Positions 2 to 51,198 of a stretch of 52,630 bases of DNA are shown here, in pieces. The notes below the pieces were generated by a model. It was not told the DNA's origin, did no database searches, and worked only from the letters and a program-made list of their open reading frames with translations. The position numbers were made by a program, and so were the translations under genes. The stretch spans positions 1 through 52,630 of the IMG/VR virus record IMGVR_UViG_3300025093_000028; one strand, 5' to 3'. This stretch comes from a virus (lineage: Duplodnaviria; Caudoviricetes). How positions within the stretch are numbered: position 1 is the first letter of the stretch; each line of letters opens with the position of its first letter.

Positions 2-1003
2 TGAATCACCTTGAAGTCCTGGATTAAGACATCCAAATTGTTGTGATGTAGGTGTATCATCATCTGGTCTTATCACTGCTATAATATCTTCATACACCCA
101 CACAGGACCTGTTGCACTAGCTGCAACTGGTAGTGTTAGACCTGTTTGATTTACTCTTAAATTTCCACAAACACCTTCACCTCTAGCTCCAGAAGTTCTT
201 CCTGATGTCCAGATTTTTGGATTAGTGGCAAATAAGTTATCTAATTCAAGTGTTGTTGCAAACTGTGGGTTGTCGTTTGGTATTATACCATCTAGACCAA
301 TAGGTTGCCAAGACTTGTTATCAATTACATTTTGTTGTACAGAAAATAAAGCAGCATCTACTTTGTTAGTGATTCCTGAAGATTGGTAATATGTTGGAGC
401 ATATCTTACACTTCTTCCAACAATGTTTACTGGAGAAATGTAACCTGCTTGTGTTTCAGTGGCTTGGTATACATTGTTTACTGGATCATAATCATTTGTT
501 ATATCAGCAGGATTTGATAAATTCCTATCACTTGTAAAGTTAGGATTTTCTATAGTTACATGATTATTAGTTAGACCTACTAGTACTCCTGTTGCTGTAT
601 CTTTTACGATTGTACCTAATGTACCTACTGCAGGCCATCCTCTGTCTGAACTCATAGTTATACCTGCTCTAAGTGGCCTAGTAAACTGTCTGTTTGTAAA
701 TTCACCAGAGTTAGCACCACTCCATCCCCCACAAGTTGTACATCCTAATTGATATGCTCGTGATGCTTCAATTACATCTATTTTAATCACTTGATCACCT
801 ACAGTAATTTCAGATGGAAGAATTTCTTCAGGAGATAAGTCTTCAATAGGTTTCTTCTGAGTTACACTACATACAATAGCAGGTTCTCCAGTGGCTGTAC
901 CTCCAGAGACTTTTTCTCCCAAACCTACTGAATTAAGATTAGGATTAGCTTTTGCCATCTCTTTTATCTTATCTTTTATTTCTTGTGTTAATTCTAGTGA
1001 CAT
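2..1003 (-). CDS. Trypsin-like (clan PA, Nal1/Ssy5-like) serine protease with N-terminal pro-domain; 3' end truncated by the window edge
   Basis: Not in ORF track; translated by hand from ATG at 1003 (MSLELTQEIK...). Open for 334 codons to the edge. Contains GTLG...LTNNHV (His), VDAALF (Asp), SGRTSG, and PGLQGDS at the edge (Ser of GDSG). Confidence 0.8.
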   Translation of the reverse strand, partial: MSLELTQEIKDKIKEMAKANPNLNSVGLGEKVSGGTATGEPAIVCSVTQKKPIEDLSPEEILPSEITVGDQVIKIDVIEASRAYQLGCTTCGGWSGANSGEFTNRQFTRPLRAGITMSSDRGWPAVGTLGTIVKDTATGVLVGLTNNHVTIENPNFTSDRNLSNPADITNDYDPVNNVYQATETQAGYISPVNIVGRSVRYAPTYYQSSGITNKVDAALFSVQQNVIDNKSWQPIGLDGIIPNDNPQFATTLELDNLFATNPKIWTSGRTSGARGEGVCGNLRVNQTGLTLPVAASATGPVWVYEDIIAVIRPDDDTPTSQQFGCLNPGLQGDS

Positions 1004-1015
1004 ATTCTATTAGTT

Positions 1016-3766
1016 TTATGCTGGTGTTTCTGCTTCAAACCACGTCCATATTGTATTTACACCTTCAAGTAATGTAGTGGTTGTAGTTGTTGTACTTGGT
1101 GGTGGATCAAATGATCTAATACCATCGCTTATTCTACATTCTGCTCTACTTCCAAAGTCAGCAGCTCCCCCTGGTGTTATTCCTGATGGTGCTTCTTCTG
1201 AAGGAACTAAACTCCAAACACTTGTATTTACATCAAGTCTCCATAAACCATCTAGTGAAGGATCTATAATTAAATCTGGTCTTACAGATATATATATGTA
1301 ATTATCAACCATTCCTATAGATGCAGTACCTTTAATACCTGTTGGTAAATTTATAGTTCCTTCTAATGCACCTGTCAAGTAATCAAATTGTTTTAGATTT
1401 CCAGTATCTAGAAAGCCACCAAATGGAAGACTTGGACTAATTAGTTTATTTGGTGTTACACCATCTTCTTTAAATGTAAGAAGTACATCTCCTGTAAGTC
1501 TAAAATCAGTATTCTCCCACTTTTCAGTAACTTGTAATTCTGTAGTTCCTTCAATAATTTCTACTTCTAAAACTTTATTTATTGAAGAAGTTTGGTAAAG
1601 TGCTACAAATTTAGTGTCATTTATTGTTTCCATGACACCAGGAGCAGGATTAGTCCACTCATTTGGGAATGTATAGAAAACTCCATCCCATGTGATATTA
1701 CCAGGAACACCATTAGTTCCTAATGTGTATCCATATCTTGTCAAATTACCTGGTAGTCCAGTTTGCAGTAAATTACCAATTAAATAGTTTTCACTAACTG
1801 AAAAATCAGGATATGACATATAGCTACCTTGTGGTAATACTATTTCTTCTTTTATAAATGATACAGGATTCCAAGCATATATTCTATTATAACCTGCTTG
1901 TCCAGGATAACATGCTCCAGGATTAGCTGCACAACTATTAACGTAAGCCTCAGGATAAATTAGATTACAAGTTAGAGGTGGTTGAGTACAAGCTAATGCA
2001 ATTGGTCCACCAGTTGGTGCAGTTCCTGATATAGTTAATACAGTGTAATCAGTTTCACAACTTATAATAAACTCTCCATTAGTACTATTATCACTATATA
2101 CTCCTCCTCCAAACTGATTACCTACAACATTAACTCCATAACCAGTTGATATTGTAATGGTTGGAGTTTCTGTATTTGTGTCTGCTTGATAAATATCTCC
2201 TTGGATAAATTCACCGTTTGAAAAAGTGGTGTTTAGTATTCCAACTCTTATTGCAATATTGTTTACAGGCTGAGGAAATGTTATTGTGTAGTCAAAAGGT
2301 TGACCAGAAGGACCAGATAACCCTACACCATTTGCTCTTGGTATAACTAAACCTGTATAAGGTCCAACATAATCTAGTGTATATGATGGATATAAGGTAA
2401 AACCAGTAGGAGGTGATGTTGCTGAAATACTACTTCCCTCAACAGTCATTCCTTGATAATCAAATGATACTGGACCTATATATGGACCACTTGCACCGCT
2501 TTCCTCTCTTACATTTAACCAAGGTAGGACAATAACATCATCACAAGGATCTTCATAATAAAGATCAACATCTGAACAACCAGTTGTTGAGAATACACTT
2601 GGTGCATCTGATGTTACAGTAAAGTCTGCAGCTGCTGTATATGGAGGTTGTTGTTCTACTGTATATAAAACAAGTGTTTCTGGATGAAGAACATACAATA
2701 TACCTTCTCTTGAGAATATATCCATGTACTTTTCACCTGTGTAAGCACTAGTAAATTCTGGAACTCCTAAATCTTGCAACTTCATTGGAGCTGTTATATT
2801 TTCTTGATTAGGTCCTGAATCTAAAGTTTTTTGTTGTATCCAGTTACCTGTTCTAGTATCACCTGGATTATCATAATCAAGTCTGAAATTTGTAATCACT
2901 TGACCATTATTAAGATGTAATACACCTGGATTTGAAACAGTTCCATTACAAGTATTTACAGCTGCTCCAAGACCAATTTTATCAGAAGAAGAACTTGGTA
3001 AACTTAAAGCTATATTACCTGTATCAGATATATCAATATTATACCCAACAACTGTTGGGCAAGTATTAGTGGCAGTTGGTCCACCAAAACCTACTACTAA
3101 AGTGGTATCATTAATAGCAGTTATAGTAGTACATTGAATACCTGTAAAAGTAAGATTACTTTCACTAATATTTGCTAAAGACACATTAATCTCTCTAACA
3201 AAAGATAAAGTTGGAGGATTTGATGTACTATTTATATTATACTCTTTAACTACAAAGTTAAGTGAGGTTTCATCTGTTTCACCAGATAACCACAATTTAG
3301 TTTGTGTTGCACATATTGGTCTAGTAACTCCTTGTGTTACTGTAAAATCATTAGGAACTAATACTGCAGATACTGTATTATTTATCATATCATATACTCC
3401 TATTTCTCCTGAATCTCCTCCAAAACTTGTCCAAGTACATAATGTTGCTGGTGGAAGTGATGTTGTAGTAGTGGTAGTTGGTGGTGGAGTGGTGGTTGTA
3501 GTTGTTGTAACATCACAAATAATAGACCCAGTAAAGTCACAGTTTGGTGTAGCACAAGAATAAATATCTGTTGAACCACAAAGACTATTTAAATTATCTA
3601 ATCTAACAACAGTAGTTCCATCAGGAGCCTCTACTTGATAACCAGCCAATAACGCTGCTTTAGAAACGTTTTGAGCAAACGGTATAGCAAAACCAGTTGC
3701 ATCTGAATACAAATCAAAAGGACCTGTTTCATTGCCTGCAAAACTTAATGTTATTATTATTGTCAT
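1016..3766 (-). CDS. Large tail/fibre-associated virion protein, beta-rich, with poly-Thr linkers
   Basis: 916 aa in the tail region of the late operon; T/S/G/P-rich; Thr tracts after a short N-terminal domain and before the C-terminus. Confidence 0.6.
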   Translation of the reverse strand: MTIIITLSFAGNETGPFDLYSDATGFAIPFAQNVSKAALLAGYQVEAPDGTTVVRLDNLNSLCGSTDIYSCATPNCDFTGSIICDVTTTTTTTPPPTTTTTTSLPPATLCTWTSFGGDSGEIGVYDMINNTVSAVLVPNDFTVTQGVTRPICATQTKLWLSGETDETSLNFVVKEYNINSTSNPPTLSFVREINVSLANISESNLTFTGIQCTTITAINDTTLVVGFGGPTATNTCPTVVGYNIDISDTGNIALSLPSSSSDKIGLGAAVNTCNGTVSNPGVLHLNNGQVITNFRLDYDNPGDTRTGNWIQQKTLDSGPNQENITAPMKLQDLGVPEFTSAYTGEKYMDIFSREGILYVLHPETLVLYTVEQQPPYTAAADFTVTSDAPSVFSTTGCSDVDLYYEDPCDDVIVLPWLNVREESGASGPYIGPVSFDYQGMTVEGSSISATSPPTGFTLYPSYTLDYVGPYTGLVIPRANGVGLSGPSGQPFDYTITFPQPVNNIAIRVGILNTTFSNGEFIQGDIYQADTNTETPTITISTGYGVNVVGNQFGGGVYSDNSTNGEFIISCETDYTVLTISGTAPTGGPIALACTQPPLTCNLIYPEAYVNSCAANPGACYPGQAGYNRIYAWNPVSFIKEEIVLPQGSYMSYPDFSVSENYLIGNLLQTGLPGNLTRYGYTLGTNGVPGNITWDGVFYTFPNEWTNPAPGVMETINDTKFVALYQTSSINKVLEVEIIEGTTELQVTEKWENTDFRLTGDVLLTFKEDGVTPNKLISPSLPFGGFLDTGNLKQFDYLTGALEGTINLPTGIKGTASIGMVDNYIYISVRPDLIIDPSLDGLWRLDVNTSVWSLVPSEEAPSGITPGGAADFGSRAECRISDGIRSFDPPPSTTTTTTTLLEGVNTIWTWFEAETPA

Positions 3767-3792: not shown

Positions 3793-5748
3793 TTAAGGTG
3801 CTCCTGTAAGACCTGTCATGTCCAGCTCTTCAGTAGCAGCAGATTTTACAAAACTTACTGTAGATAACTTACTATCAGTTTCTACTGATGTATCATTTAA
3901 TATAATAGTTCCGTCAAGGGTAGCTCTATTTGTAAATGCAAATGTTCCTGTTTTCTCAGTTTGAATAGTAATTTCTATATCATCTCCAGCGTTACAGAGA
4001 ATTAAACCACTATCATTTGCCATCAATGTACCTGAACTAATACCGTTTCTAGATATTGTTGCTCTAACAACAATAGGTTGTCCACCGTTTGACAAGTCCC
4101 AATTTAATTTAACAGTTGGAACCTCAGTGGTAGTTGTTGTAGTGGTTGTTGGTGCTACAGTTGTTGTAGTTGTAGTGGTTGGTGCACAAGATCCCCACTC
4201 AACAAAGAAGGAGTCAGTGCTTGGATTAAAGTTTTGAAGAATCGAATCAAGATTCTGACCATCTTTATCTATTGATGAGAATTGAAAATCACTAGTGGTA
4301 ATTAGCTGCGGACTATTTGGACGGAAGAAACCATACGAAACATCCACTGCACCAAGAGCCCCATTTTCATAGTTATACCATGCGTCATATATTGTTCCTC
4401 CTATATTAAACTGTACATATACAGGAGTGGATATTCCTGACCAAGAAGTTTCACCTGTTGTGTTTATATCTGGACCAATTGGTGCAGGATTAAGAAGTAA
4501 ACTATTTTTAGTAATGCTAGGATTCGAATTACTATCATACCACGAAGCATAGTTTATATCTTGGCTTGAGTTATTATATAATAAACAATTAGGTGCTACA
4601 GTTGTTGTACTAGTTGTAGTTGATGTACTAGATGTACTAGTTGTAGTTGTAGTTGGTCCAGGACACACATAAAAATCAAGTACAACTCCAGCTAGCGCAT
4701 CAGCTGGAGGAGACAATACAAGTTTTAGTTCACTTATATTTCCACTAACTGGTGAAATTGCTGTAACTCCTGAAGAGGTTACTGGGGACGATGATGCTGG
4801 AATTGTTCCACTTAAATTAACTGTGTTTTGATCTATTTGACTTGTTATATAAGATCCACATGCAATTATTTCAGTGGCAGCAATTTCTTGAGGAGATGTT
4901 ATAGAAAGAATCTCTACGTCTCCTGGTCTTTCAATTGAACCATAACCCCCACTTATAAATGCTATAGCGTTTATTGGAGGATTAAAATTCATTACTAATG
5001 TTGAACCACCCTTCATACCAAGAGCACCTTGTCCACCAGATTGATTTGTCTGGTATGCCCCATTACATACCTCACTAGTACCTGGTGTAAATGGAACATA
5101 AATGGGTGCTAGTCCAAGATAGCTTGTAGTTAATTGAACTCCGTTGCTCAATATTTTAGTTCCATTTCCAGTCTGTACATTAGGGAAACCTTCTGGATCA
5201 GTAAAATCAAATGCTTCTATACAATCAAAAACAATAATTGTAGTGGTGGTTGTAGTTGTACTACTTGTACTACTTGTGGTAGTAGTTGTAGTTAGTTCTT
5301 CAAAACATCCTTCTATTCTACAATCTGGATAGATAGTAGTTGTAGTTGTAGTTGTTGATGATGTGCTAGTTGTCGTAGTGGTAGTACTAGAAGTACTTGT
5401 AGTGGTAGTAGTTGGGTTTGGTACAACATCAACACAACATGTAGTGATTTCACATACAGTTGGTTCATTACATCTGCTAACACATCCAGATGTTAAACGA
5501 ATCACTTTACCAGCAATATCGTTAACAGAAACAGACCCTGCATAATGAGGGTTACAATACTTAAACGTTAGTATACGTTTATACGCTAACAACTGATTGA
5601 TCTCATAAGCAGATATACAGTTACCTAACATGAATACAACATCATTGTATGCATTGTTAGCAAGCTCTGCCAGCTTACAATCAATCTGTTTAAGTAGGTC
5701 AGGAATCTTGTGACAATCCTGACAATTTGTTAATCTGGGTGTTAACAT
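3793..5748 (-). CDS. Tail hub-like N-terminal domain fused to beta-rich domains separated by four poly-Thr/Ser tracts
   Basis: 651 aa; Cys-rich helical N-terminus of about 100 aa; position matches the second hub gene of crAss-like phages (synteny only). Confidence 0.55.
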   Translation of the reverse strand: MLTPRLTNCQDCHKIPDLLKQIDCKLAELANNAYNDVVFMLGNCISAYEINQLLAYKRILTFKYCNPHYAGSVSVNDIAGKVIRLTSGCVSRCNEPTVCEITTCCVDVVPNPTTTTTSTSSTTTTTTSTSSTTTTTTTIYPDCRIEGCFEELTTTTTTSSTSSTTTTTTTIIVFDCIEAFDFTDPEGFPNVQTGNGTKILSNGVQLTTSYLGLAPIYVPFTPGTSEVCNGAYQTNQSGGQGALGMKGGSTLVMNFNPPINAIAFISGGYGSIERPGDVEILSITSPQEIAATEIIACGSYITSQIDQNTVNLSGTIPASSSPVTSSGVTAISPVSGNISELKLVLSPPADALAGVVLDFYVCPGPTTTTTSTSSTSTTTSTTTVAPNCLLYNNSSQDINYASWYDSNSNPSITKNSLLLNPAPIGPDINTTGETSWSGISTPVYVQFNIGGTIYDAWYNYENGALGAVDVSYGFFRPNSPQLITTSDFQFSSIDKDGQNLDSILQNFNPSTDSFFVEWGSCAPTTTTTTTVAPTTTTTTTTEVPTVKLNWDLSNGGQPIVVRATISRNGISSGTLMANDSGLILCNAGDDIEITIQTEKTGTFAFTNRATLDGTIILNDTSVETDSKLSTVSFVKSAATEELDMTGLTGAP

Positions 5749-9624: not shown

Positions 9625-11178
9625 TTAGAATTGTGGGATTTCTTCAATCAACACAGTTCTAGATAGATCCTCAATAAATACGTCACATCTATCTTTCATC
9701 CAGATTTCGTATCCTGGGAATTTGTTAGCAGAGCTCATACCTTGAGACTTAGCAAAGCCTAAGTGGTGACGAGTTCCATCAATATAACCCCAAGTCATAG
9801 AAGGAGCACCCTTCATACGTACCTCACGGATGTTGTTTACCATTGATCCATCTGATTGAGGAGATACATCAAATACCATGAATACAGGAGTAGACTTCTT
9901 GTTTTGTCCAAATTCTAAGTTAGTTTGTGGTAAATCTAACTCTTTCAAGTGAACAAGTTCTACACGTCCAGTCTCACGAGTAACCATTGCATCGAAAGCA
10001 AAGTTATAAGTGATAGACTGTCCTTCTCCTTGTAAGTATCTGTTTCCAGAATCAGCCATGAAAGTAAGACCTGAGTTAAGTGCATCATCTTTAAGAGCTT
10101 GTTGGAATACATCGAATCCAGCCTCATTAGTGTACATTTTAACTCTACGATCTTTAACGTCCACTCGTCTGTAGAATAAGTCTCCAAATACTGAACGAAT
10201 CAAGTTTGCAGAGAACTCACCTCTATTGTATTGTACTAAGTTTCCGTTATTTCTCATTCTGTGGTATACACCAGCAGAAGTTCTTTTTAATTCTTGTTTA
10301 GAACCGTTAGTCTTAACTGTTCCAGGCTTAGCCCAGATCATTCTCTTAACTTTCAATTCTAACATAGACTTACGCATCCAGAACTCAACGAAAGGCTCCC
10401 ATTTAACATCGTTTCTTGTTAAAGGAAGTTGATTACGTCTTTGTGGAGCATATACTAAGATGTCTAGTGGCTTACCAGAAGCATCACGCATCATCTTGTC
10501 ATCAGCCCACTCAGTGATTTTGTGCTCATATCCATATGCAGAACCTAAAGATTCGAACATAGTGATTTGCTCACCTAATCGTGGAAGACCTAATAAGTCT
10601 TGGTCAAATTCACCAATTGCAGCATCAACTAGTTCTAACTCGATACCTTGAGCTAAGAACTGAGAACTTACAAAGTCTACAGTTGGATTGTCACTTACTA
10701 ATGTAAAAGTGTACAAGAATCCAGCATTCCAAGGCTGAGGATCTTTGATTACATAGAAACGTGGTCCATACTGACGAGTACCTACAGAAACGATAGCGTT
10801 CTTAGAGAACTCATTAGTATCAAGCACTAATGTAAATTCTTGTCCATCAATACCTGGCTTAGGATTAGCAGCTGTTGAATCAGGGACATCAATGATTTTT
10901 GGGAATTTGTAAGGTACAGCGATTTGCCATTTCCAAGCATCACTATTCGTATCAATGTAATACGGAGTGCTCTTGTTAATCATATCAAGGAAATCATTGC
11001 TGTACAATGAAGATTGAGTATACAGACTGATAATCTTTTTATCATAGTCCGCAGGCTCAGTAGAGTGGAAAGACTCTAAGTGATTTGCGTCTGTTAGCTT
11101 TCCTACAGCACGCTTATCCATAGAAGCTACTCGTGCATAAGTAAAACCAGTTAGACCTGGGATAGTTTGAATTGCCAT
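9625..11178 (-). CDS. Major capsid protein (crAss-like, HK97 fold)
   Basis: 517 aa; portal-scaffold-MCP order; size and sequence character match the crAss-like MCP family as recalled; terminal EIWMKDRCDVFIEDLSRTVLIEE segment. Confidence 0.85.
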   Translation of the reverse strand: MAIQTIPGLTGFTYARVASMDKRAVGKLTDANHLESFHSTEPADYDKKIISLYTQSSLYSNDFLDMINKSTPYYIDTNSDAWKWQIAVPYKFPKIIDVPDSTAANPKPGIDGQEFTLVLDTNEFSKNAIVSVGTRQYGPRFYVIKDPQPWNAGFLYTFTLVSDNPTVDFVSSQFLAQGIELELVDAAIGEFDQDLLGLPRLGEQITMFESLGSAYGYEHKITEWADDKMMRDASGKPLDILVYAPQRRNQLPLTRNDVKWEPFVEFWMRKSMLELKVKRMIWAKPGTVKTNGSKQELKRTSAGVYHRMRNNGNLVQYNRGEFSANLIRSVFGDLFYRRVDVKDRRVKMYTNEAGFDVFQQALKDDALNSGLTFMADSGNRYLQGEGQSITYNFAFDAMVTRETGRVELVHLKELDLPQTNLEFGQNKKSTPVFMVFDVSPQSDGSMVNNIREVRMKGAPSMTWGYIDGTRHHLGFAKSQGMSSANKFPGYEIWMKDRCDVFIEDLSRTVLIEEIPQF

Positions 11179-11208
11179 TTGTTATTCGTTTTAAATTAAA
11201 TTATTAAA

Positions 11209-12495
11209 TTATAAAAACCATGAATTAGGTTTGGTCTTTTTACTTGAAGACTTAGAAGCTGTCTTGCTTCTAGTCACTTGTCTAGCTACTTCCCCAAAGA
11301 GTTGGTTAGACTTTTTAGTCACACCTGTTCTTTGTATAGTAGATAGAGTAGGATCTTTTTCTAATATCTTCAGTAAAAGCCCCACCTTTACTTTCATTTC
11401 ATGGTTCTCAGGTCTTTTCAAATCTAAGATAGCACGATCAAAGTCAGTGAGATTTTCTCCAGCAGGAGTTTTCCACTTGTCTACTAATAGGAAGTCTTGT
11501 AGTTCGTTTGCTAAGTTAGAATTGATTGGTATACCATCAAACTCTTTTTCTTTTAGCTTGTCAGTTAAAATAGTCTGAACGTTGTTTATATATTGGTTCT
11601 TGATAGCAACCTTTTGTTGTTGCAACTCTTCAGCTTCTTTATCTAATTGTTGAAGCTTTTTAGCTTCTTTCTTTACTAGCACCTTGTGATGTCTAGTAGC
11701 TACGGATTCTAAATCACCGTAATTTTGTAATCTTTCGATCTCTTTATCTATGTCTTCTGATTCAAATCCTTGATCAACGAGTGCTTGTTTCATCACTGCC
11801 ACTTGATTCTTTTCATTAGATAAGTCCATTTCTGAGAAACTTACAATCTGGTTGTATGTTCCAAAGTATTCTTTTGGGTCAACTCCTTTTACAAAAATAG
11901 ATTCAAATGCTTGTTGGTAATCTTCACCAAACTGCCCAATGAAGTTTTGAACTAATTCAGATGCACCTTTTTTCTTTTCAGCGTTAAATCTTTCTAGAAA
12001 CTCTTCAGGTGTATTGATCGATACTTCTTCATCTTCACTATCCTTTGTAAAGACTCCTAAGTTAAACAAGTCATTAGCTAAAGCAGTGAATTGAGTTCCA
12101 TCTACTTGCTGTTCTTGTTCTTCTTCTTCAGACTCTTCAACTTTTTCTTCTTCAACTGGCTCTTCTTTTGCAACAGTTGGTTCTTCTTTTTCTTCTTCTT
12201 CTTCTTCCTCTGCATCACTTAAGAAGTCAGCTATCAAAGATTCTCCTGATTGCTTTTCTTCATCAGTTTTACCATCAACACTTTTTGGTGGAGTGATATC
12301 TTTACCTTTTGGTACACCATCATTAGCCTCTGGCTTAGGTGCATCAACTTCATTTACTATAGGTTCAACATCATCAGGGTTTCCTGAAGCAGTTTCTGGA
12401 GCAAGTAAATCATTCAGTAATTGAGTGTCCCCTGCACCAGTCTCAACAGTATCTTGAATACCGAAGTTACCGATTTTATCTAAATTATCAGACAT
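11209..12495 (-). CDS. Putative capsid scaffolding protein
   Basis: 428 aa, very acidic N-terminal half with poly-Glu, coiled-coil C-terminal half; lies between portal and MCP. Confidence 0.65.
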   Translation of the reverse strand: MSDNLDKIGNFGIQDTVETGAGDTQLLNDLLAPETASGNPDDVEPIVNEVDAPKPEANDGVPKGKDITPPKSVDGKTDEEKQSGESLIADFLSDAEEEEEEEKEEPTVAKEEPVEEEKVEESEEEEQEQQVDGTQFTALANDLFNLGVFTKDSEDEEVSINTPEEFLERFNAEKKKGASELVQNFIGQFGEDYQQAFESIFVKGVDPKEYFGTYNQIVSFSEMDLSNEKNQVAVMKQALVDQGFESEDIDKEIERLQNYGDLESVATRHHKVLVKKEAKKLQQLDKEAEELQQQKVAIKNQYINNVQTILTDKLKEKEFDGIPINSNLANELQDFLLVDKWKTPAGENLTDFDRAILDLKRPENHEMKVKVGLLLKILEKDPTLSTIQRTGVTKKSNQLFGEVARQVTRSKTASKSSSKKTKPNSWFL

Positions 12496-12637
12496 ATGTA
12501 GTTAAATTTTGTTACGAAATTGGTTTATTATGTAAAACTATGCTAAGACTATCTAATTTCAAAGCATATTTGCCTAATAAAGGCAACTATTTTTGATAAT
12601 ATAGCATTAACATTTTTTACTCTGCTAATTTAATTGA

Positions 12638-36424: not shown

Positions 36425-38713
36425 ATGAGATTAGAAAATCAAAAACAATCAAACGTCCTAGCAACAGGACCAGCTAACAAGAGCATAGGAATGTCCTTAG
36501 ACTTAGATTCTGCACAGGTATTGATGCAGATGTTAAGTAAGAATCTGTATTCAGATGCAATAGGCTCTACAGTTAGAGAGTGTGCCAGTAATGCACTGGA
36601 CAGTCATAGAAGAGCAGGAGTGAATAAACCTATAGTGGTGTCTCTTGTAAGAAATGACAGTAATAATTATGAATTCTCTGTTGAGGATTTTGGTATTGGT
36701 TTAGATGCTAATGATGTGGAGAAGATTATCAGTAAGTATGGTAAGTCTACAAAGCGTGACAGTGATACAGAACTTGGTATGATGGGTCTTGGTTTCAAGG
36801 CCCCTCTAGCTTATGCTAGTAGCTTCTATTTTACATGTAGAAAGAATGGTGTAGAGCGTAAGTATATGATGTACGAAGGTGAAGACACTAACACTATTGA
36901 CTTGATATATGAAAAACCAACAACAGAAGGTAACGGTGTAAAAGTGATTATACCTATTAAGTGGGGAGATAGATATGACTTTGTAAATAAGATTAAAGAG
37001 CAGCTTGCTTATTTTGAGCATGTGTATTTCAATGTGGATGACATAGATAATAACTTTGTGATTCACAGATCTAATTTGTTTCAGTTCTCTGAACTATCTT
37101 CTGATAGCTATCTACATGTATGTCTTGATGATGTTTATTATCCACTAGACTTCAAGAAGCTTGGCATGGGTAAGATAGAAATACCTGTAGGTTTGAGACT
37201 TAGTTTGACAGATGGTGTGTTTCCTACACCAAACCGTGAGGCTCTTAGATATACACCTGAAGCAAAAGCAGCTATTCTAGAAAAGATACAGCGCTTTGCT
37301 AATGTAATGACACAACGGTATAATCAATCAGTCACTGTAAATAGTGATGTGTATGCTGTACTGAAGTATTACACAAGCAACAGTAGATATATCAATATGT
37401 TTGGTAAGCAGTTTGACTATAATCAACTTGCTCCATTTGCTACAGCTAGAATTGCTACACCTAAGATACCTGGTGTAGATACATTGGAATTACATACGTT
37501 ACAAGGATATGCATTTGGTGCATTACTTAACAATTACAGACGTTCTTACAAGTATGAGAATGGTAGAATGTATGAGATAAAAGCTGATAATACTTGGTCT
37601 TCACGTGTTGATTGGGATGCAAAAGATAGAAGACACTATATTCTTAATGGTGACATGCGAGGACATAAGAAAGCCTATCTTAGAGAACTTGCAGAAGATC
37701 ATGAAGATAGATGTGTATATTTTATTAAGGAGAAAACTAAGCAATTGGCCAGAATGCAACTTAAAGGAAGCAAGGGCTATAAAGAGCTTCTAAAGCTTAA
37801 CAACTATCCTAAAGATCAATGGAGAACTGTAATCAAAGAGTGGCAGCACATTGAGAGTCTTCTACTTGCTGATGTTATTGATGCTGATGCTATTGAGGTA
37901 CCTCAAGATTGGATAGATGCTAGAAAGCAGACCAAAGTGGCTAAGATGAAAGCAACTAAAGCTGCTAAAGGTGCAAAGTTAGCAGGTGATTTCAATTGTA
38001 AGAGAGCTGAAAATCTTCTTAGATACAATGATGGTAGAAACTGTAAGTTTGTTGCTGGTCGTCTTAATGTTCAAACAATAGAAGAGGGTAACACTCTTTA
38101 TGTTTATACACATCACGATGACTTTATGAAGCTTGATAAGATGTATGAGGATACCAAAAAGATGGGTATTGAATACATTACACTATCTCAACGTGAGCTT
38201 GATGTTATAGAAGATTCAGGAGAGACAGTGGACAATCTAGTATCTTATGATGATTTTGTTAAAGGTCATGAGAAGTTTGTTCAGATAGTTACAGCTGTAC
38301 GCATTCACAGATTCTGTAATAACTATAGTAATGTGTTTGATAAGAGAAGTTATATTAAAGAAGTTAATTTAGAACTTGCAACTGATCTAAAGAATCTTAC
38401 AGATTACCGAGCACTCTACCTATATCCTACTAAGTATAGTAGTTTTGGAGATCTTGATGATTTGATGAAGATAGCTGAAGAGAACAACTTGTTTGATGAT
38501 ACATATTATCAACTACAAGAGAAGGTTCATCAACTATTAAAGACTCACTATTATTTCAATACACTTGCAAACGTGATGAATTATTCTCACACCTCTAGCG
38601 GACTTCTAGATTGTATGGCACAACTAATGACTTGTAATGGGTTAGAGGTGAATCCAAACTATGAGTATAACTATCTAAAGAAAGCGCTGAAGGACAGCGA
38701 AGAAACAGAGTAA
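36425..38713 (+). CDS. rIIA: rIIA-like protein (GHKL/HSP90-type ATPase N-terminus)
   Basis: LYSD...VRECASNALDSH, EDFGIGL, YGKSTKR, GMMGLGFKAP, TPNREALRY; followed by an rIIB-like gene. Confidence 0.85.
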   Translation: MRLENQKQSNVLATGPANKSIGMSLDLDSAQVLMQMLSKNLYSDAIGSTVRECASNALDSHRRAGVNKPIVVSLVRNDSNNYEFSVEDFGIGLDANDVEKIISKYGKSTKRDSDTELGMMGLGFKAPLAYASSFYFTCRKNGVERKYMMYEGEDTNTIDLIYEKPTTEGNGVKVIIPIKWGDRYDFVNKIKEQLAYFEHVYFNVDDIDNNFVIHRSNLFQFSELSSDSYLHVCLDDVYYPLDFKKLGMGKIEIPVGLRLSLTDGVFPTPNREALRYTPEAKAAILEKIQRFANVMTQRYNQSVTVNSDVYAVLKYYTSNSRYINMFGKQFDYNQLAPFATARIATPKIPGVDTLELHTLQGYAFGALLNNYRRSYKYENGRMYEIKADNTWSSRVDWDAKDRRHYILNGDMRGHKKAYLRELAEDHEDRCVYFIKEKTKQLARMQLKGSKGYKELLKLNNYPKDQWRTVIKEWQHIESLLLADVIDADAIEVPQDWIDARKQTKVAKMKATKAAKGAKLAGDFNCKRAENLLRYNDGRNCKFVAGRLNVQTIEEGNTLYVYTHHDDFMKLDKMYEDTKKMGIEYITLSQRELDVIEDSGETVDNLVSYDDFVKGHEKFVQIVTAVRIHRFCNNYSNVFDKRSYIKEVNLELATDLKNLTDYRALYLYPTKYSSFGDLDDLMKIAEENNLFDDTYYQLQEKVHQLLKTHYYFNTLANVMNYSHTSSGLLDCMAQLMTCNGLEVNPNYEYNYLKKALKDSEETE

Positions 38714-38715
38714 TC

Positions 38716-38750
38716 ATGTGGGAGATTGTTTGACAGTCTCCCATATTTTT
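38716..38750 (+). terminator. Hairpin/terminator between rIIA and rIIB
   Basis: TGTGGGAGATTGT-ttg-ACAGTCTCCCATA followed by TTTTT. Confidence 0.7.
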
Positions 38751-38782
38751 CGTATATTAATAAATAAATAACAATTAAAAAC

Positions 38783-40297
38783 ATGAGTAAATTTCTAAGT
38801 TTGGAATGGTTCAAAAACAAAGTGGACCATTCAGTAGAGAAGGTAATTGAGAAGAAACTTGATGCCTTAATGAACCAGCAAGATGAAGAAGCTGGACAAC
38901 CATTCAGCAGCGCTAAGCTTGTAAATGATGTACTAACTGTTGTAATGAACGATGGTTCTGTAATTACCAAGATGGATGCTACAGAGGATCACTATGCAGC
39001 TGTACAGGTAGCAAAGAATGTAGCAGAGCTGTATTCTATTGTTAGTGACCCTAGTGTTGTTAGTGAGAAGATTGAAGAAGAGAAGAAGTTGGCAAGACTT
39101 AAAGCTCTTCGTGAGGGACTCTCTGTTCTGAAAGAGAGTGGTGAGTTCACAGTGGATGGAGATAGTGTATACTTCAAAGGTATATCTAGATCTCTACCAC
39201 AACTACTAGTTGAAGAACTTATCGATGAGGTGAGTCGTGCTAAAGAGTTGGGTATTCCACTAAATGATTCTGATGGATATCAGTCTCTCAAGCGATTCTT
39301 TATGTGGTGTGCACTTAATCCAAGAGCTGAGGTGGCACATGAGCTATACAGATTCTTGAAAGAGAACAGCTTCCGTATCACTAAGCAAGGATTCTTTGTA
39401 GCACTACGTAATGTTGTTACACTACATGGAAGCCCAGAGCTTGTACACTTTATCTCTAATACTTACAACAAGGTGAAAGCTGTCTGGAAGAAGAGCCCAG
39501 ATGACTACACTGTGTTCCTAGAAAATGGTGAATACAAGCTTGTACATGATGATAAGCTATATCGTGAAGAAACACACACTAGTACAAGTTGTCAAGAGTG
39601 CTTGGGAGAAGGTGGTTACTATGATGATGGTGATTATTATGAAGATGAAGATGAATGGAATGAAGGTGAGTGGATAGAATGTGATACATGTGGTGGTACA
39701 GGTGAAGTGGAACCTTATGAAGTAACAAACACTGTACGAGTAGATCATGGAGAAGAGATAGGTAAACTTACAGAGCTCTATCTAGACCTACCTAACAGAC
39801 ATGAGAATCGTTTCACAGATGATTGGACTAAAACATTTGATATTCGTGTAGGTAAGGTGGTTAACATGCCTAAGGAAAGTTGTAACTGGTCAACACAAGA
39901 TTGTGCTGCAGCTGGTTTACACTTCACTTCTGACCAGATACACTATGTAGGATGTGGTGATCAGTCTGTACTTGTTCTTATCAATCCTATGAAGGTAGTT
40001 GGTATTGGTGCACACAAGGGTAGATGCTATGAGTATTTACCAATCATGACTGTACCAAGAGATGAGGCTACAGAGATTCTTCATGACAATCAGTTTGACA
40101 CTCTACAGCTTGATGAAGAGTATGCAATCCGTGAGCTTGAAAACCTTGAGATTAAGGTGCAAGAAGGATTTGTAGCTGAGACCAGTAAGTATGAATTCAA
40201 CTTACCAAATGTTAGCAGTTCTGACATACGTAATATTGTAGGAAGCTTAGAGGATATGAAGGCTGAGATACGAGATAGAATCGTATCTTTAGATTAA
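38783..40297 (+). CDS. rIIB: rIIB-like protein with inserted DnaJ-type Zn finger
   Basis: NPRAEV..ELYRFL...ITKQGFFVALRNV; VGKVVNMPK; CAAAGLH; VLINPMKVV; KGRCYEY; insertion CQECLGEG...CDTCGGTG. Confidence 0.8.
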   Translation: MSKFLSLEWFKNKVDHSVEKVIEKKLDALMNQQDEEAGQPFSSAKLVNDVLTVVMNDGSVITKMDATEDHYAAVQVAKNVAELYSIVSDPSVVSEKIEEEKKLARLKALREGLSVLKESGEFTVDGDSVYFKGISRSLPQLLVEELIDEVSRAKELGIPLNDSDGYQSLKRFFMWCALNPRAEVAHELYRFLKENSFRITKQGFFVALRNVVTLHGSPELVHFISNTYNKVKAVWKKSPDDYTVFLENGEYKLVHDDKLYREETHTSTSCQECLGEGGYYDDGDYYEDEDEWNEGEWIECDTCGGTGEVEPYEVTNTVRVDHGEEIGKLTELYLDLPNRHENRFTDDWTKTFDIRVGKVVNMPKESCNWSTQDCAAAGLHFTSDQIHYVGCGDQSVLVLINPMKVVGIGAHKGRCYEYLPIMTVPRDEATEILHDNQFDTLQLDEEYAIRELENLEIKVQEGFVAETSKYEFNLPNVSSSDIRNIVGSLEDMKAEIRDRIVSLD

Positions 40298-43564: not shown

Positions 43565-43883
43565 AGAATTCAATCTAACATATGAGCTAGTTATGGATGG
43601 TCCAGGGCTAGTTATAGAAGTTCCTGCAGTGGTTCAATATTTGAATCAAGTATTTGATGATCTACTAAAGATAGAGGGATTTAAGTGTAAAGAGATATCT
43701 ACTATCCGTGGTATACCACGTGTAGAAACTAACCTCAATGAGATTTTACCATTCGTTGGTAGAATAATCAATGAGCAGTTAGAGGAGAATCTTAGTCTTA
43801 TGTTGAAAGTGGAATTCGAAGTAGAGCAACGATTGCTATCGTTGAATTTAGACAAACACGGTAAACCTATAAATCATGAATAA
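43551..43883 (+). CDS. Hypothetical protein
   Basis: 110 aa, overlaps the nrdB start. Confidence 0.6.
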   Translation: MRTAEEFNLTYELVMDGPGLVIEVPAVVQYLNQVFDDLLKIEGFKCKEISTIRGIPRVETNLNEILPFVGRIINEQLEENLSLMLKVEFEVEQRLLSLNLDKHGKPINHE

Positions 43884-44856
43884 GAACATTTTTATGCCAA
43901 GGGTCAATATTCTCCCTTATGAATATCCACAATTACTAGACTACAAAGATGCAATCAGACACTCGTATTGGATTGATACAGAGTTTAACTTCACTGAAGA
44001 CATACAAGACTTCAAGGTGACAATTACAGATGAAGAACGTGATGTTATCAAGAAGACTATGCTTGCTATAGCTCAGATTGAGGTGAATGTAAAAACCTTT
44101 TGGGGTGATTTGTACAAACGTATGCCTATTACAGAAATAGGTGATGTGGGATTCACATTTGCTGAATCAGAAGTGAGACATAAAGATGCATATGCCAGAC
44201 TGTTAAGAATTCTTGGGCTAGAAAAAGAGTTTCAGAATGTAGTTGAGGTGCCTGCTATAGAAGGGCGCATCAAATATTTGAAGAAATACTTAGATGGTAC
44301 AAGATCTAGAGACAACAAGATGTACACTAAGTCTGTGCTGTTGTTTTCTTTATTCATAGAGCACGTTAGTTTGTTTAGTCAATTCCTCATTATGATGAGC
44401 TTTAACAAAGAGAAGAATGTCCTGAAGGGGATATCTAATGTTGTTGAGGCTACAAGTAAAGAGGAAGAGATACATGGTAACTTTGGAGCAGAGCTCATCA
44501 ATATTATTAAGAAAGAGAACCCTGAGTGGTTTGATGAAGAGTTTGAAAACCTTATATACTCAGCATGTAAGAAAGCTTACGCAGCTGAGTGTGGTATATT
44601 AGATTGGATCTTTGAAAAAGGAGAACTTGAGTTTCTACCAAAGGAAACAATCCAGCACTTCATCATGAACCGTTTCAACAACTCACTTAAAAAGATTGGA
44701 ATGAAGCCAATGTTTGGTGTGGACAATGAGTTATTAGCATCAACTAAATGGTTTGACATAGAAATCACTGCTACTAAAGAAGGAGACTTCTTCTATAAGA
44801 AGCAAGTGGATTATAATAAAAAGAGTAAGAGTATAACTGTAGACGATTTATTTTAA
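43876..44856 (+). CDS. nrdB: Ribonucleotide reductase beta subunit, class Id (NrdBi)-type
   Basis: PYEYP, AQIE69VNVK73, E99VRH102KDAY106, IEHVSLFSQF, KEEEIH, DFF.K..VDY. Confidence 0.92.
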   Translation: MNKNIFMPRVNILPYEYPQLLDYKDAIRHSYWIDTEFNFTEDIQDFKVTITDEERDVIKKTMLAIAQIEVNVKTFWGDLYKRMPITEIGDVGFTFAESEVRHKDAYARLLRILGLEKEFQNVVEVPAIEGRIKYLKKYLDGTRSRDNKMYTKSVLLFSLFIEHVSLFSQFLIMMSFNKEKNVLKGISNVVEATSKEEEIHGNFGAELINIIKKENPEWFDEEFENLIYSACKKAYAAECGILDWIFEKGELEFLPKETIQHFIMNRFNNSLKKIGMKPMFGVDNELLASTKWFDIEITATKEGDFFYKKQVDYNKKSKSITVDDLF

Positions 44857-44857
44857 A

Positions 44858-46486
44858 ATGGAATATAAAAGATATTACTGGCTTAATGAAGACAGTAGAA
44901 TGTTCTTGTCCAGGGGATATCTAGATGAGTCCCCTGAGCAAAGAATACGAGATATAGCAAACGTAGCTGAGAAGTATCTAAACATGCGTGACTTTGCACA
45001 CAAGTTTGAAGACTACATGTCTAGAGGTTTCTATAGCTTATCAACACCTGTATGGATAAACTTTGGTAAAAGAAAGGGTTTACCTATCAGTTGTTATGGA
45101 TCTAATGTAGATGATACACTAGATAGTATACTAAATGCAGGACGTGAGATAGGTATGATGTCAAAGAATGGTGGTGGTACAAGCGCCTATCTAGGAAACA
45201 TTAGACCAAGAGGAACTAGCATTAGTACAGGAGGTAAGGCTGATGGACCAGTGCATTATGCAAGAATCTATGACACTGTTGTAGATGTTTGTAAACAATC
45301 TGCAGCTAGACGTGGAGCATGTGCTGTCTATCTACCTGTGGAACATGCAGACATAGAAGAGTTTCTAGACATTGGTACAGAGGGTAATCCTATTCAGAAT
45401 CTTCAGTATGGTGTTACAGTTAGTGATGCCTGGTTGAAGAGTATGAAAGCTGGTAGTAAAGAGAAACGTAAGATATGGGCTAAGATTATTCAAAGGCGTA
45501 ATGAATTTGGATTCCCATATATTATGTTTAAGGACAACTCAAACAATGAGACATCTCCTTATAAAGAACTAGGGTATGAAATTACAGCTAGTAATTTATG
45601 TAGTGAAATACAGCTTCCTACAGACAGCTTCCATAGTTTTGTGTGCTGTTTAGGATCTATCAACTTGTTACACTGGGATGAGATAAAAGAAACAGACGCA
45701 GTGGAAACATATGTGTTGTTCTTAAATGCAGTGATCAATGAGTTTATACAAAAGGCAGAACACCTTCCAGGTATGAAGCGAGCTTGGAGATTTGCCAGAG
45801 AACACAGAGCTATTGGTGTAGGTGTACTAGGATATCATTCCTACTTCCAGTCTAAGCTTATAGAGTTTGAATCACTAGAAGCTAAACAACTTAACCATCA
45901 GATCTTCAAGACATTGAAAGAACGTACAGAAGATGCTTCTAGATGGTTACATGATGCTAAGGGGTATAAGTCTATTAGAGAAGGCTTTGCTAACACTACA
46001 CTTATGGCCATAGCACCAACTAAATCTAGTTCGTTCATCCATGGTCAGGTGAGTATGGGTATTGAACCTATCAAGTCTAACTACTTCATCAAGGATCTTG
46101 CTAAGAGTAAGACAGTGTATAAGAATCCGTTCTTAGAAGCTGAGCTTGAGAAGTATGATATGAATAACGATGAAACATGGGAGTCTATTCTTAAGAAGGA
46201 TGGATCTGTACAGCATCTAAAGTTTCCAACTAAGGCTGTATTCAAATCCTTCATAGAGATAAGTCCTAAAGAACTAGTTCTGCAGGCTGCTCAAAGACAG
46301 AAGTTTATTGATCAGTCACAGAGTCTAAACTTAATGATACACCCAACTGTATCTGCTAAGGATATCAATCAATTATATCTTTATGCACATGAAGAAGGGG
46401 TAAAAACACTCTATTATCAGTTCAGCCAGAGCTCAGCTCAAGCATTTGCAAGAAACATTCTTGACTGTGCAAGCTGTGAAGGCTAA
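44858..46486 (+). CDS. nrdA: Ribonucleotide reductase alpha subunit, no ATP cone
   Basis: PISCY, SNLCSEI, VCCLGS, AIAPT, FIDQSQSLN, KTLYY, C-terminal CASCEG. Confidence 0.95.
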   Translation: MEYKRYYWLNEDSRMFLSRGYLDESPEQRIRDIANVAEKYLNMRDFAHKFEDYMSRGFYSLSTPVWINFGKRKGLPISCYGSNVDDTLDSILNAGREIGMMSKNGGGTSAYLGNIRPRGTSISTGGKADGPVHYARIYDTVVDVCKQSAARRGACAVYLPVEHADIEEFLDIGTEGNPIQNLQYGVTVSDAWLKSMKAGSKEKRKIWAKIIQRRNEFGFPYIMFKDNSNNETSPYKELGYEITASNLCSEIQLPTDSFHSFVCCLGSINLLHWDEIKETDAVETYVLFLNAVINEFIQKAEHLPGMKRAWRFAREHRAIGVGVLGYHSYFQSKLIEFESLEAKQLNHQIFKTLKERTEDASRWLHDAKGYKSIREGFANTTLMAIAPTKSSSFIHGQVSMGIEPIKSNYFIKDLAKSKTVYKNPFLEAELEKYDMNNDETWESILKKDGSVQHLKFPTKAVFKSFIEISPKELVLQAAQRQKFIDQSQSLNLMIHPTVSAKDINQLYLYAHEEGVKTLYYQFSQSSAQAFARNILDCASCEG

Positions 46487-46548: not shown

Positions 46549-46620
46549 AACAATGAAAGATATTACTATCTTGAATTCTGATAATTTGGATTAAATATTT
46601 CTGTTCTGTTTTTAATTGTG

Positions 46621-46654
46621 AAAGGGGCCTTGGAGAAATCTAAGGCCTTTTTTT
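46621..46654 (+). terminator. Intrinsic terminator
   Basis: GGCCTTGGA-gaaa-TCTAAGGCC followed by T7. Confidence 0.85.
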
Positions 46655-46679
46655 GCTTGGAAAATAGACTAGAATTAAC

Positions 46680-46687
46680 TATATTTG
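46680..46687 (+). promoter_or_regulatory. Bacteroidota-type promoter for recA
   Basis: TATATTTG with TTGG ending 19 nt upstream. Confidence 0.65.
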
Positions 46688-46710
46688 TATGTAATAATAA
46701 ACAATTAAAA

Positions 46711-47811
46711 ATGGCAAAAAAGCAAGAATCAACCGTAGACAAGTTCCAGGAAGCACTGGAAAAACTAAACAAACAGTATGGAAAGGGAACCGTACTAGCA
46801 CTAGACAGCAAAACAGAAGGCACTTATGATGCAATCAGTACAGGGTCAATTGGATTTGACTGGATTACATTAGGTGTTGGAGGTTTTGTAAAAGGTAAAA
46901 TGTATGAACTTATGGGCTGGGAGGGCACAGGTAAATCTACAATATGTGGACATGCTGTAGCTAGCTGCCAGACTAAAGGAGGAAAGGTAGTTTATATTGA
47001 TGGCGAACATGCTGTTGATAAAAACTATTTTGAAGCACTAGGTGTAAATACATCAGAGATGTTAATTGCTCAACCATCATCAGGTGAAGAAGGTTTTAAC
47101 ATTGCTGTAGAGATGATGCAGTCAGGAGAAGTAGATTTAGTAATCATTGACTCAGATAGTTCACTTATTCCTAAAGCTGTGTTAGATGGTGATGTTGGAG
47201 ATCATGCAATTGGTAAGAAGGCAAGACTAAACAGTGGTGCCTATCCAAAGATTAAAAGCATTGCTCATAGTACAAACACATGTGTTATTGTAATCTCTCA
47301 GTATCGTGAGAAGATTGGTGTTATGTTTGGTAACCCAACTACTACACAAGGAGGACATGCTCTTAAGTTTTATTCTGATTGTAGAATAGAAGTGGGCAGA
47401 TCTCTAGCAAAAGAAGGACAAGAAGTGTATGGTAACATCACAAGAGTGAAAGCTACCAAGAACAAGATGAGTCCTCCATACAAGAAATCAGAGTTTGAGA
47501 TTGTGTATGGTGTAGGTATTGATAAGGTGGGTGAAACTTTACAGCTGCTGCATGAGTTTGGATTAGGTCGTAAGTATGGTAAGACATATACATTTGATGA
47601 TGTAAAATATGACCTAGAGGAGTTCAAGCAGATGATACTAGAAGATGTTGAGTTCTTTGATAAACTAAAGACTACAATTGTAAACGCTATTCGTGGTGTA
47701 GAAGAGGAAGAAAAAAAAAGTGAAGTTGTGAACTATGAGCAGGCTAAAACTATTGAAGTGGTAGCGCCTGAAGAGCTTACACCAGATCTATTTGATATAC
47801 CTGAGTTATGA
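46711..47811 (+). CDS. recA: RecA recombinase
   Basis: AISTGS, GWEGTGKST, YIDGEHAVD, IAQP..GEE, QYREKIGVMFGNPTTTQGGHALKFY, KNKMSPPYK. ATG at 46711 follows an A-rich leader. Confidence 0.95.
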   Translation: MAKKQESTVDKFQEALEKLNKQYGKGTVLALDSKTEGTYDAISTGSIGFDWITLGVGGFVKGKMYELMGWEGTGKSTICGHAVASCQTKGGKVVYIDGEHAVDKNYFEALGVNTSEMLIAQPSSGEEGFNIAVEMMQSGEVDLVIIDSDSSLIPKAVLDGDVGDHAIGKKARLNSGAYPKIKSIAHSTNTCVIVISQYREKIGVMFGNPTTTQGGHALKFYSDCRIEVGRSLAKEGQEVYGNITRVKATKNKMSPPYKKSEFEIVYGVGIDKVGETLQLLHEFGLGRKYGKTYTFDDVKYDLEEFKQMILEDVEFFDKLKTTIVNAIRGVEEEEKKSEVVNYEQAKTIEVVAPEELTPDLFDIPEL

Positions 47812-50898: not shown

Positions 50899-51198
50899 TT
50901 AACATTTCCACCTACGTCTAGCTTGTCTTATTCTAGAGTTAGGATTATTTCTAGTTTTTGCACTACTTCTTTTTAACTGTCCCAAACTACGAGCGCAATA
51001 AGACTTACGTCTCTTTGCAGCTTTAGATCCCTTCTTCACCTTTCCTGTAACAGCAGTTTTTAACTTGCTTCCAGGATTAGCTTTTCTATAGGCTTTTACA
51101 CCTTTCTTAGTCATACCAGCACCCTTCTTGGTAGGTCTGTAGTTAGCACCTTTACCCTTAGTGGTTTTTCTGATAGGATTTTCTTTCTTACGAGCCAT
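50899..51198 (-). CDS. Highly basic small protein
   Basis: GAGMTKKGVKAYRKANPGSKLKTAVT...RRKSYCAR...ARRRWKC, a family recurrent in aquatic phages. Confidence 0.75.
   Translation of the reverse strand: MARKKENPIRKTTKGKGANYRPTKKGAGMTKKGVKAYRKANPGSKLKTAVTGKVKKGSKAAKRRKSYCARSLGQLKRSSAKTRNNPNSRIRQARRRWKC

Follow-up and report, generated by a model that had tools for sequence, protein, structure and literature searches.

The locus described here raises the question of what a serine protease is doing among the fibre genes of a tailed phage. The gene lies at the start of a stretch of 52,630 bp from a virus of the Caudoviricetes (Duplodnaviria), referred to below as the window, which is the entire, linear IMG/VR record IMGVR_UViG_3300025093_000028 and has an estimated completeness of 46%. 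It is read from the minus strand, codes for a protease resembling the plant protein NAL1, and follows directly on the gene for a fibre-type protein of 916 amino acids (aa). The reading which we favour, with a probability of roughly 40%, is that the protease is docked on a fibre of the virion and acts on a protein of the host surface. The positions of all features are collected in Table 1.

The protease open reading frame (ORF) begins with an ATG at nucleotide (nt) 1003 and covers 334 aa up to the edge of the window, where it is still open; no ORF of at least 60 aa in the window's ORF list overlaps it. A protein database search gave 95 homologues with an expect value (E) of 1e-3 or less among 2930 candidates, and the closest of these, P0001, is a protein of 443 aa with one difference in the window's 334 residues. 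Extending the contig had been proposed as a check in the first-pass annotation of this DNA. The IMG/VR contig L003 is identical to window bases 1-1003 at 996 positions, and in this contig the frame runs past the edge without an immediate stop and forms the whole 443-aa ORF, stop codon included (L003:3702-5033), which is followed by further genes. The break in the window ORF is therefore the end of the record inside a gene which is real and whole.

The first-pass annotation had described His, Asp and Ser motifs in the order of the trypsin fold, and all three (TNNHV, VDAAL and GDS) were located, an agreement well outside chance. His148, Asp216 and Ser334 were invariant in an alignment of 33 relatives (A1), and across the 277 members of the family that were collected, many of them closely related, they were kept in 271/272, 271/272 and 271/271 aligned sequences, respectively. 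In the PHROGs database the protein matched phrog_20754 ('protease'; E 2.5e-12), and a cluster look-up returned 'hypothetical protein' names only. The sole Pfam match of the window protease was NAL1_N (PF25608), at E 0.0021 and 18.2 bits, which is below the curated cut-off of 27, and three of six relatives scanned scored 17.6, 18.6 and 12.4 bits with the same profile. In a profile search of the Protein Data Bank (PDB) sequences, nine distinct rice NAL1 sequences ranked first (E 3.7e-4 to 1.5e-3), with query residues 25-151 lying on NAL1 116-238. The His motif TN(x)HV and the sequence GDSGS were aligned with those of NAL1 (H234 and S385), and Asp216 is presumably the equivalent of the NAL1 aspartate, given its order and invariance.

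A structure was modelled from A1 with AlphaFold2 (predicted local distance difference test, pLDDT, 84.0; predicted template modelling score 0.89). NAL1 chains were the top matches of this model in Foldseek (E 2.4e-16), followed by streptogrisins and alpha-lytic protease (E about 1e-7). Structural alignment with VIA-align gave a Z score of 29.0 to NAL1 (8PMI chain B; root mean square deviation 3.5 over 329 residues, model 1-402 on NAL1 90-454) and of 17.7 to streptogrisin B (3SGB chain E; deviation 2.1 over 182/185 residues, model 111-394). The nearest viral model in BFVD was an uncharacterised protein of Virus NIOZ-UU157, with 45% identity and a template modelling score of 0.92. Look-alikes in the ESM Atlas, which served as leads only, came first from viral and then from bacterial clusters, with minorities labelled Nal1_C, NAL1_N, Trypsin_2 or Peptidase_S64. 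On the basis of the model, the ORF is predicted to be a catalytically competent chymotrypsin-fold serine protease with a conserved His/Asp/Ser triad, in agreement with the clan to which it had first been assigned. Its modelled architecture consists of an N-terminal beta domain, a streptogrisin-like two-barrel protease domain and a C-terminal mini-domain of ~45 residues.

The mini-domain lies past the window edge, at aa 397-443 of P0001. It contains a conserved ..GKTYWQxGLT.. segment, Q432 and G434 are near-invariant, and the last residue is Cys in 116 of the 119 members having that position. The T-Y-W core is loosely like a T-I-W tail found on the partner protein described below.

Alpha-lytic protease and the Lysobacter proteases L1 and L5, which lyse bacteria, were among the next-best structures after NAL1 (Z 16.9-17.5, model 109-396; alpha-lytic protease itself Z 17.5 over 191/198 residues). 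The phage enzyme might on this ground be a peptidoglycan-lytic protein of entry or lysis, like these bacteriolytic S1E proteases. We consider this very improbable: the protein matches NAL1 much better, Pfam scans of the window protease and six relatives gave no cell-wall-binding domain, and peptidoglycan is conserved among hosts, whereas the protease diverges in the manner of a host-range protein (see below).

According to the NAL1 paper, the plant protein has three parts, namely aa 1-88 (N-terminal domain), aa 89-172 (ATP-binding domain) and aa 184-458 (protease domain, with the triad H234, D291 and S385). It retains the ATP-binding/trimerisation domain, which keeps the trimer together through contacts with the protease domain (PMC12012508). 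R120 and K139 are said there to bind phosphate, and D166 is assigned to the Mg/water site (PMC12012508). The same text states that activity needs an N-terminal strand from another subunit, which pairs with an additional strand in the protease domain, and that free trimers without the N-terminal domain are inactive, aa 1-88 joining two trimers as the active hexamer (PMC12012508).

The phage protease starts at the equivalent of NAL1 residue 90, and the first 88 residues of NAL1 have no counterpart in it. Since it begins at this point, its first ~108 residues appear by homology to be the counterpart of the ATP-binding/trimerisation domain that NAL1 retains (PMC12012508), with no sign of removal or self-activation, and the label 'pro-domain' given to this region at first is not supported. 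In the PDB profile alignment the family-invariant residues K31, T38, K50 and D76 fall on NAL1 R120, T127, K139 and D166; K31 was conserved in 260/267, K50 in 268/268 and D76 in 268/268 members. Nucleotide binding by this domain is plausible from these residues. The N-terminus, in a string VGLGEKVSGG...QKKP beginning at aa 26, had also been likened to Nal1 and Ssy5. The NAL1 part of this comparison was supported (NAL1_N at E 0.002, below the cut-off; PDB profile at E 3.7e-4; Z 29), but the Ssy5 part was not: Peptidase_S64 (PF08192), the Ssy5 family, gave no Pfam match at E <= 1 in the window protease or six relatives, and the sole link to Ssy5 was the Peptidase_S64 label carried by 22% of the members of one bacterial Atlas cluster.

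Like NAL1 (PDB 8PMI, 8PMG, 7Y77, 8HAS), the phage protein has a beta domain followed by a two-barrel serine protease domain. It differs from NAL1 in its sequence (~18% identity), in lacking the 88 N-terminal residues, in having the extra C-terminal mini-domain, and in being a viral protein from a fibre gene block that is often fused to binding-domain arms. The name NAL1-type is used here, and not NAL1 family member in the curated sense, because the N-terminal domain of NAL1 is absent and the Pfam score is below the cut-off. Streptogrisins and alpha-lytic proteases are exported by means of a signal peptide and are made with an N-terminal pro-region that is cleaved off. The phage protease domain superposes nearly fully on these enzymes (3SGB, 2ALP, 5MRR), but the identity is 14-19% and the N-terminal domain matches the retained domain of NAL1.

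The setting of the gene was examined in the window and in relatives from IMG/VR (197 stretches, of which 79 loci were examined). On the minus strand of the window, the operon runs from TerL through the portal gene, a gene for a 428-aa protein, the major head protein gene and four genes for virion-type proteins to those of the 651-aa protein, the 916-aa protein and the protease. The placement among genes for Thr-linked fibre-type proteins noted in the first-pass annotation was thus found again; the capsid gene lies upstream of the protease at a distance of seven genes and 8.6 kb. In L003 the protease is followed by a 364-aa protein matching tail and tail-fibre PHROGs, by small proteins, an exonuclease, the ring genes (CrAss_Ring_2, E 1.4e-18; CrAss_Ring_1, E 8e-7) and the crassvirus muzzle (crAss_MUZ, E 2.4e-29). 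As ring and muzzle genes lie downstream in contigs nearly identical to the window, the source phage, which is uncultured and marine, is assigned on sequence to the crAss-like phages. Going by this affiliation, its host is probably a marine member of the Bacteroidota. The gene order around the protease is largely conserved across the loci, and the protease is located in an appendage block, with capsid genes on one side and tail-barrel genes on the other.

Divergence was measured in 74 loci whose protease was less than 85% identical to that of the window, with the proteins of the window or L003 as reference. The median identity was 93% for the capsid protein and 88-89% for the ring proteins, but 45% for the protease, 39% for the upstream 916-aa protein and 55% for the downstream fibre protein. 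By this comparison the protease appears to evolve as a host-range gene, unlike a core morphogenetic enzyme. The usual prohead protease folds differ from the chymotrypsin-type fold of the window protease. That the gene could nevertheless code for the prohead (capsid) maturation protease might be argued from its position within the structural operon, and from the PHROG scan, in which no other protease was found among the window ORFs. Against this, it is separated from the capsid gene by the distance given above, it does not adjoin the portal or a scaffold gene, and its median identity is about half that of the capsid protein. In addition, tblastn of P0001 gave no match in 50,697 phage records, which we take to include cultured crassviruses, and a term search of the paper on the PhiCrAss001 structure gave no instance of 'protease', 'proteoly' or 'cleav' (PMC10172136). 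We regard a role in the prohead as scarcely credible.

A profile search of 1.84 billion representatives showed the family to be widespread: 5595 proteins reached E <= 1e-3, and 437 cluster representatives reached E <= 1e-30. Long forms of at least 550 aa made up 60 of the 277 collected members. In 57 of the 60 the protease unit was at the extreme N-terminus and was followed by a C-terminal extension of at least 100 aa (100 to 1260), whereas an N-terminal extension of at least 100 aa was found in two. Thr/Ser/Pro runs were present in 37 of the 57 C-terminal extensions, and 10 of 22 long forms scanned contained Pfam domains, among them PKD, DUF285, DUF642, RCC1, FG-GAP, a YncE-like propeller, Laminin_G_3 and cadherin. 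In crAss-like loci of shared synteny (L049-L055, L065-L069, L072, L073), the protease ORF measures 779-1285 aa and consists of the protease, poly-Thr/Ser linkers and modules resembling the window's 651-aa protein. Judged by their sequences, proteins composed of protease, linker and binding domains would be surface-exposed binding proteins, which in a phage would mean appendages of the particle.

These fusions weigh against the idea of a free enzyme, which would be released at lysis and remove receptors or surface proteins from debris or from cells nearby, or would work within the host cell on its proteins, in the way that NAL1 acts on plant regulators. In favour of such a role, the protease has no recognisable anchor module, ATP, if it is bound, implies folding in the cytoplasm, and NAL1 (PMC12012508) and the bacterial look-alikes of the Atlas clusters are intracellular or signal-less. 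A free enzyme is improbable in our view, as its gene lies between the fibre genes of a late structural operon, its relatives are fused to Thr/Pro linkers with lectin-, cadherin-, PKD- or propeller-type domains, and its gene goes together with a fibre-protein tail, described next.

A relative of the 916-aa protein was encoded directly upstream of the protease in 58 of the 64 loci with enough upstream sequence; in the window, the stop codon of this protein and the ATG of the protease are separated by a 12-nt gap. The pairing also holds in loci with another gene order (L060-L062, L074-L080) and in large phages that are unrelated in other respects (L048, L059, L063, L070). The upstream protein ends in a poly-Thr linker and a conserved tail. 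This combination, with T[IVL][WFY][TIM]xF in the last 20 aa, was carried by the upstream protein at 71 of the 73 loci that could be tested (45 distinct sequences), compared with 1 of 1249 other stop-terminated ORFs of at least 100 aa in the same loci. The single exception was itself the ORF upstream of the L073 protease, a locus left out for too little upstream sequence. The tail was even kept in L056, L071 and L081, although the rest of the upstream protein has no detectable similarity to that of the window. The motif was defined post hoc and the loci are related; despite this, the contrast between 71/73 and 1/1249 is very large.

The tail motif was missing upstream of the protease in L026 and L027. 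The 1437-aa upstream protein of L026 ends just past a poly-Thr run (..TTTTTTTVTPV), as if the tail had been lost or displaced, and that of L027 has a Cys-rich end. Co-evolution of tail type and protease clade is not claimed, because linked genes of common ancestry would give such a pattern without contact.

The N-terminal ~65 residues of the 916-aa protein are found again, with 37-50% identity, at the N-termini of small proteins encoded downstream, namely those of 86, 360, 74 and 71 aa in L003, and at several ORF starts in L009, L050 and L065. With poly-Thr linkers behind it, this segment looks from its sequence like a shared anchor module. The core of the partner protein was modelled with a pLDDT of 82, and GH43 enzymes, paraoxonase, LRP6 and the receptor-binding protein of phage phi11 all matched it at Z 11-13. 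No specific family was assigned to the core, since these top matches are mixed and the fold is generic. A complex prediction for the protease and the partner core (aa 100-600), with the C-terminal tail left out, gave a score of 0.10 and a mark of 0.32, and bears on none of the readings.

Both activities suggested in the first-pass annotation, cutting of host surface (glyco)protein and processing of the Thr-linked tail proteins, are still hypotheses. The fused forms, together with the conserved tail of the upstream fibre protein, make a role on the virion or fibre more likely as far as sequence comparison goes, without thereby identifying the substrate. On the reading that we favour, the protease would belong to the set of host-recognition appendages and act paired with the upstream beta-propeller fibre protein. 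The conserved C-terminal tail of this fibre (poly-Thr linker and ..NTIWTWFE..) would dock the protease, probably as a trimer, at the distal end of the fibre, so that the virion would carry it and a host-surface protein would be cut during adsorption. In related phages the protease unit extends, through Thr/Pro linkers, into more binding domains. By docking on the tail, the protease could reach the virion although the shared anchor module is missing from it, and docking would also explain why the unit always keeps its N-terminus free. NAL1 offers a speculative analogy: strand 194-201 of the protease is conserved, with R200, Y201 and the nearby P203 invariant in A1, and might be where the tail pairs. 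Taken further along the same analogy, one may picture a trimeric, nucleotide-stabilised NAL1-type protease at the fibre tips of many uncultured tailed phages, clipped onto a conserved 'TIWTxF' C-terminal strand of the adjoining receptor-binding fibre that replaces the N-terminal strand of NAL1, with docking as the means of activation. We consider this extended version unlikely.

Several observations weigh against a fibre-docked virion protease. The protease lacks the ~65-aa N-terminal module of the neighbouring appendage proteins, and its attachment therefore rests wholly on the idea of tail docking. It also lacks the domain whose loss leaves NAL1 trimers inactive (PMC12012508). Three of the six aligned side-chain ligands of ATP/Mg in NAL1 have conserved counterparts in the phage protein, and those of R122 and K123 vary. 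No cultured relative was found, as tblastn of P0001 against the 50,697 phage records was without a match. Close kinship among many of the 277 collected sequences makes their counts less independent, and the independence of the tail counts is likewise overstated by a motif chosen post hoc on related loci. Finally, a tail so rich in aromatic residues might just as well be the place where a chymotrypsin-fold enzyme cuts.

The last point leads to the main rival explanation, in which the enzyme is a fibre-maturation protease that trims the upstream fibre tail, or other Thr-linked appendage proteins, during assembly in the infected cell and is dispensable on the particle. Precedent in kind comes from phage fibres and endosialidases with a C-terminal chaperone domain (peptidase S74) that cleaves itself. 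In favour of this reading, the tail and protease genes are tightly linked (71/73 loci), and the Trp, Phe and Tyr residues of the tail core suit the S1 pocket of many chymotrypsin-fold enzymes, as is generally known of this fold. The genes are also translationally close, and the protease N-terminus (MSLELTQEIKDKIKEMAK), which is charged and modelled as a helix, does not look like a signal peptide. Trimming leaves unexplained, however, why the protease heads linker and binding-domain arms in 57 of 60 long relatives, and why an assembly enzyme should diverge as fast as the fibres; moreover, a tail of ~18 residues behind a poly-Thr linker would be an odd thing to remove. Maturation of the fibre is a doubtful explanation to us, yet one with a real share of the probability. 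The conserved tail offers a concrete test in the form of peptide binding or cleavage.

A fibre-docked protease can be compared with known enzymatic appendages. In tailspikes of the CBA120/G7C type, the docking element is an N-terminal adaptor on the enzyme. As in such tailspikes and in branched fibres (depolymerases, adaptor-docked in CBA120/G7C), the enzyme gene of the window lies among fast-evolving host-recognition genes, and judging from the genes the enzyme is probably attached to a neighbouring fibre through a short docking element. It differs from the CBA120/G7C type in that the enzyme is a serine protease and that the docking element would be the C-terminal tail of the partner. In the crassvirus PhiCrAss001, the fibres gp21, gp29 and gp22 attach through short N-terminal segments, according to the structure paper (PMC10172136). 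The window phage resembles PhiCrAss001 in having ring and muzzle homologues and fibre-type proteins with a common N-terminal module, and differs from it in so far as the term search of the PhiCrAss001 paper gave no mention of a protease or of cleavage (PMC10172136) and the protease family had no tblastn match in the phage genome collection. No publication that describes a NAL1-like or trypsin-like protease for crassviruses, or for the fibres of phages, turned up in a search of the literature.

To our knowledge, the enzymes with which virions clear a path to the host cell nearly all degrade glycans. A conserved, catalytically intact protease in the fibre arms would, if this reading is true, be a different attack on the host surface. 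The extended version, if true, would be a protein-cutting counterpart to the glycan depolymerases that shaves host surface proteins, and would point to a root of the plant yield protein NAL1 in viruses of prokaryotes. This family is the closest relative of NAL1 that the present analysis found outside plants, and its comparison with NAL1 could show what the ATP-binding domain and the activation by assembly are for.

Table 1. Features of the locus (window coordinates; the protein positions are those of the protein named in each row)
Feature	Position (nt)	Strand	Remarks
NAL1-type serine protease gene	2..1003	-	codons 1-334 of 443; the other 109 lie past the contig end; full in P0001 and L003
N-terminal helix and beta domain, aa 1-108	680..1003	-	predicted counterpart of the NAL1 ATP-binding/trimerisation domain
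K31	911-913	-	aligns with NAL1 R120
K50	854-856	-	aligns with NAL1 K139
D76	776-778	-	aligns with NAL1 D166
Chymotrypsin-fold protease domain, aa 109-334 of 109-396	2..679	-	predicted fold; holds His148, Asp216 and Ser334
His148	560-562	-	TNNHV, aa 145-149
Asp216	356-358	-	VDAAL, aa 215-219
Ser334	2-4	-	GDS, aa 332-334, final codons of the window
916-aa fibre-type partner	1016..3766	-	~65-aa N-terminal shared module, poly-Thr linker, core, variable C-terminal part, poly-Thr linker, tail
Partner core, aa 103-598	1973-3460	-	beta-propeller and beta-sandwich (predicted fold)
C-terminal end of the 916-aa protein: poly-Thr linker, conserved tail	1019..1096	-	STTTTTTTLLEGVNTIWTWFEAETPA; core TIWTWF at nt 1037-1054
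651-aa Thr-linked modular protein	3793..5748	-	modules recur fused behind the protease in L049 and L065/L066

Further members of the family were sought among phage records and cellular genomes. A second relative, P0079, gave one weak tblastn match in the 50,697 phage records, with 25% identity to an unannotated, uncultured 484-kb phage. A scan of one genome per prokaryotic species with a single peptide pattern, which says little on absence from cells, found one relative, L082 (30% identity, E 5e-34). L082 is a 3.7-kb contig of a metagenome-assembled genome labelled Bifidobacterium breve, and it is probably phage DNA that was binned into this assembly. In the 113-kb contig L048, from a phage that is not crAss-like, two NAL1-type protease genes stand in tandem (10004-11272 and 11286-12572), and the second also matches phrog_20754 (E 8.5e-16).

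A gene for a phrog_4417 protein (function unknown; E about 1e-54) was observed before the pair of propeller and protease genes in L048 (6447-7511), L056 (6989-8005) and L063 (7198-8214). This arrangement suggests a three-gene unit of phrog_4417 protein, propeller protein and protease in three large phages without crAss-like structural genes.

Among the other genes, the exonuclease of L003 (8454-9692) is SbcD-like (phrog_704, E 9e-54) and is located amid the structural operon, between genes of small fibre-type proteins and tail ring genes, as observed in 52 loci. The window itself encodes RIIA-like (762 aa, E 1.7e-55) and RIIB-like (504 aa) proteins at 36425-40297 on the plus strand, the subunits of a class I ribonucleotide reductase at 43876-46486 and a UvsX-like recombinase at 46618-47811. 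A 99-aa ORF at 50899-51198 on the minus strand matches just the C-terminal ends of seven PHROGs of unknown function, the best match being phrog_10346 (E 1.1e-24, profile positions 431-525 of 525), and may be a free-standing copy of a C-terminal domain.

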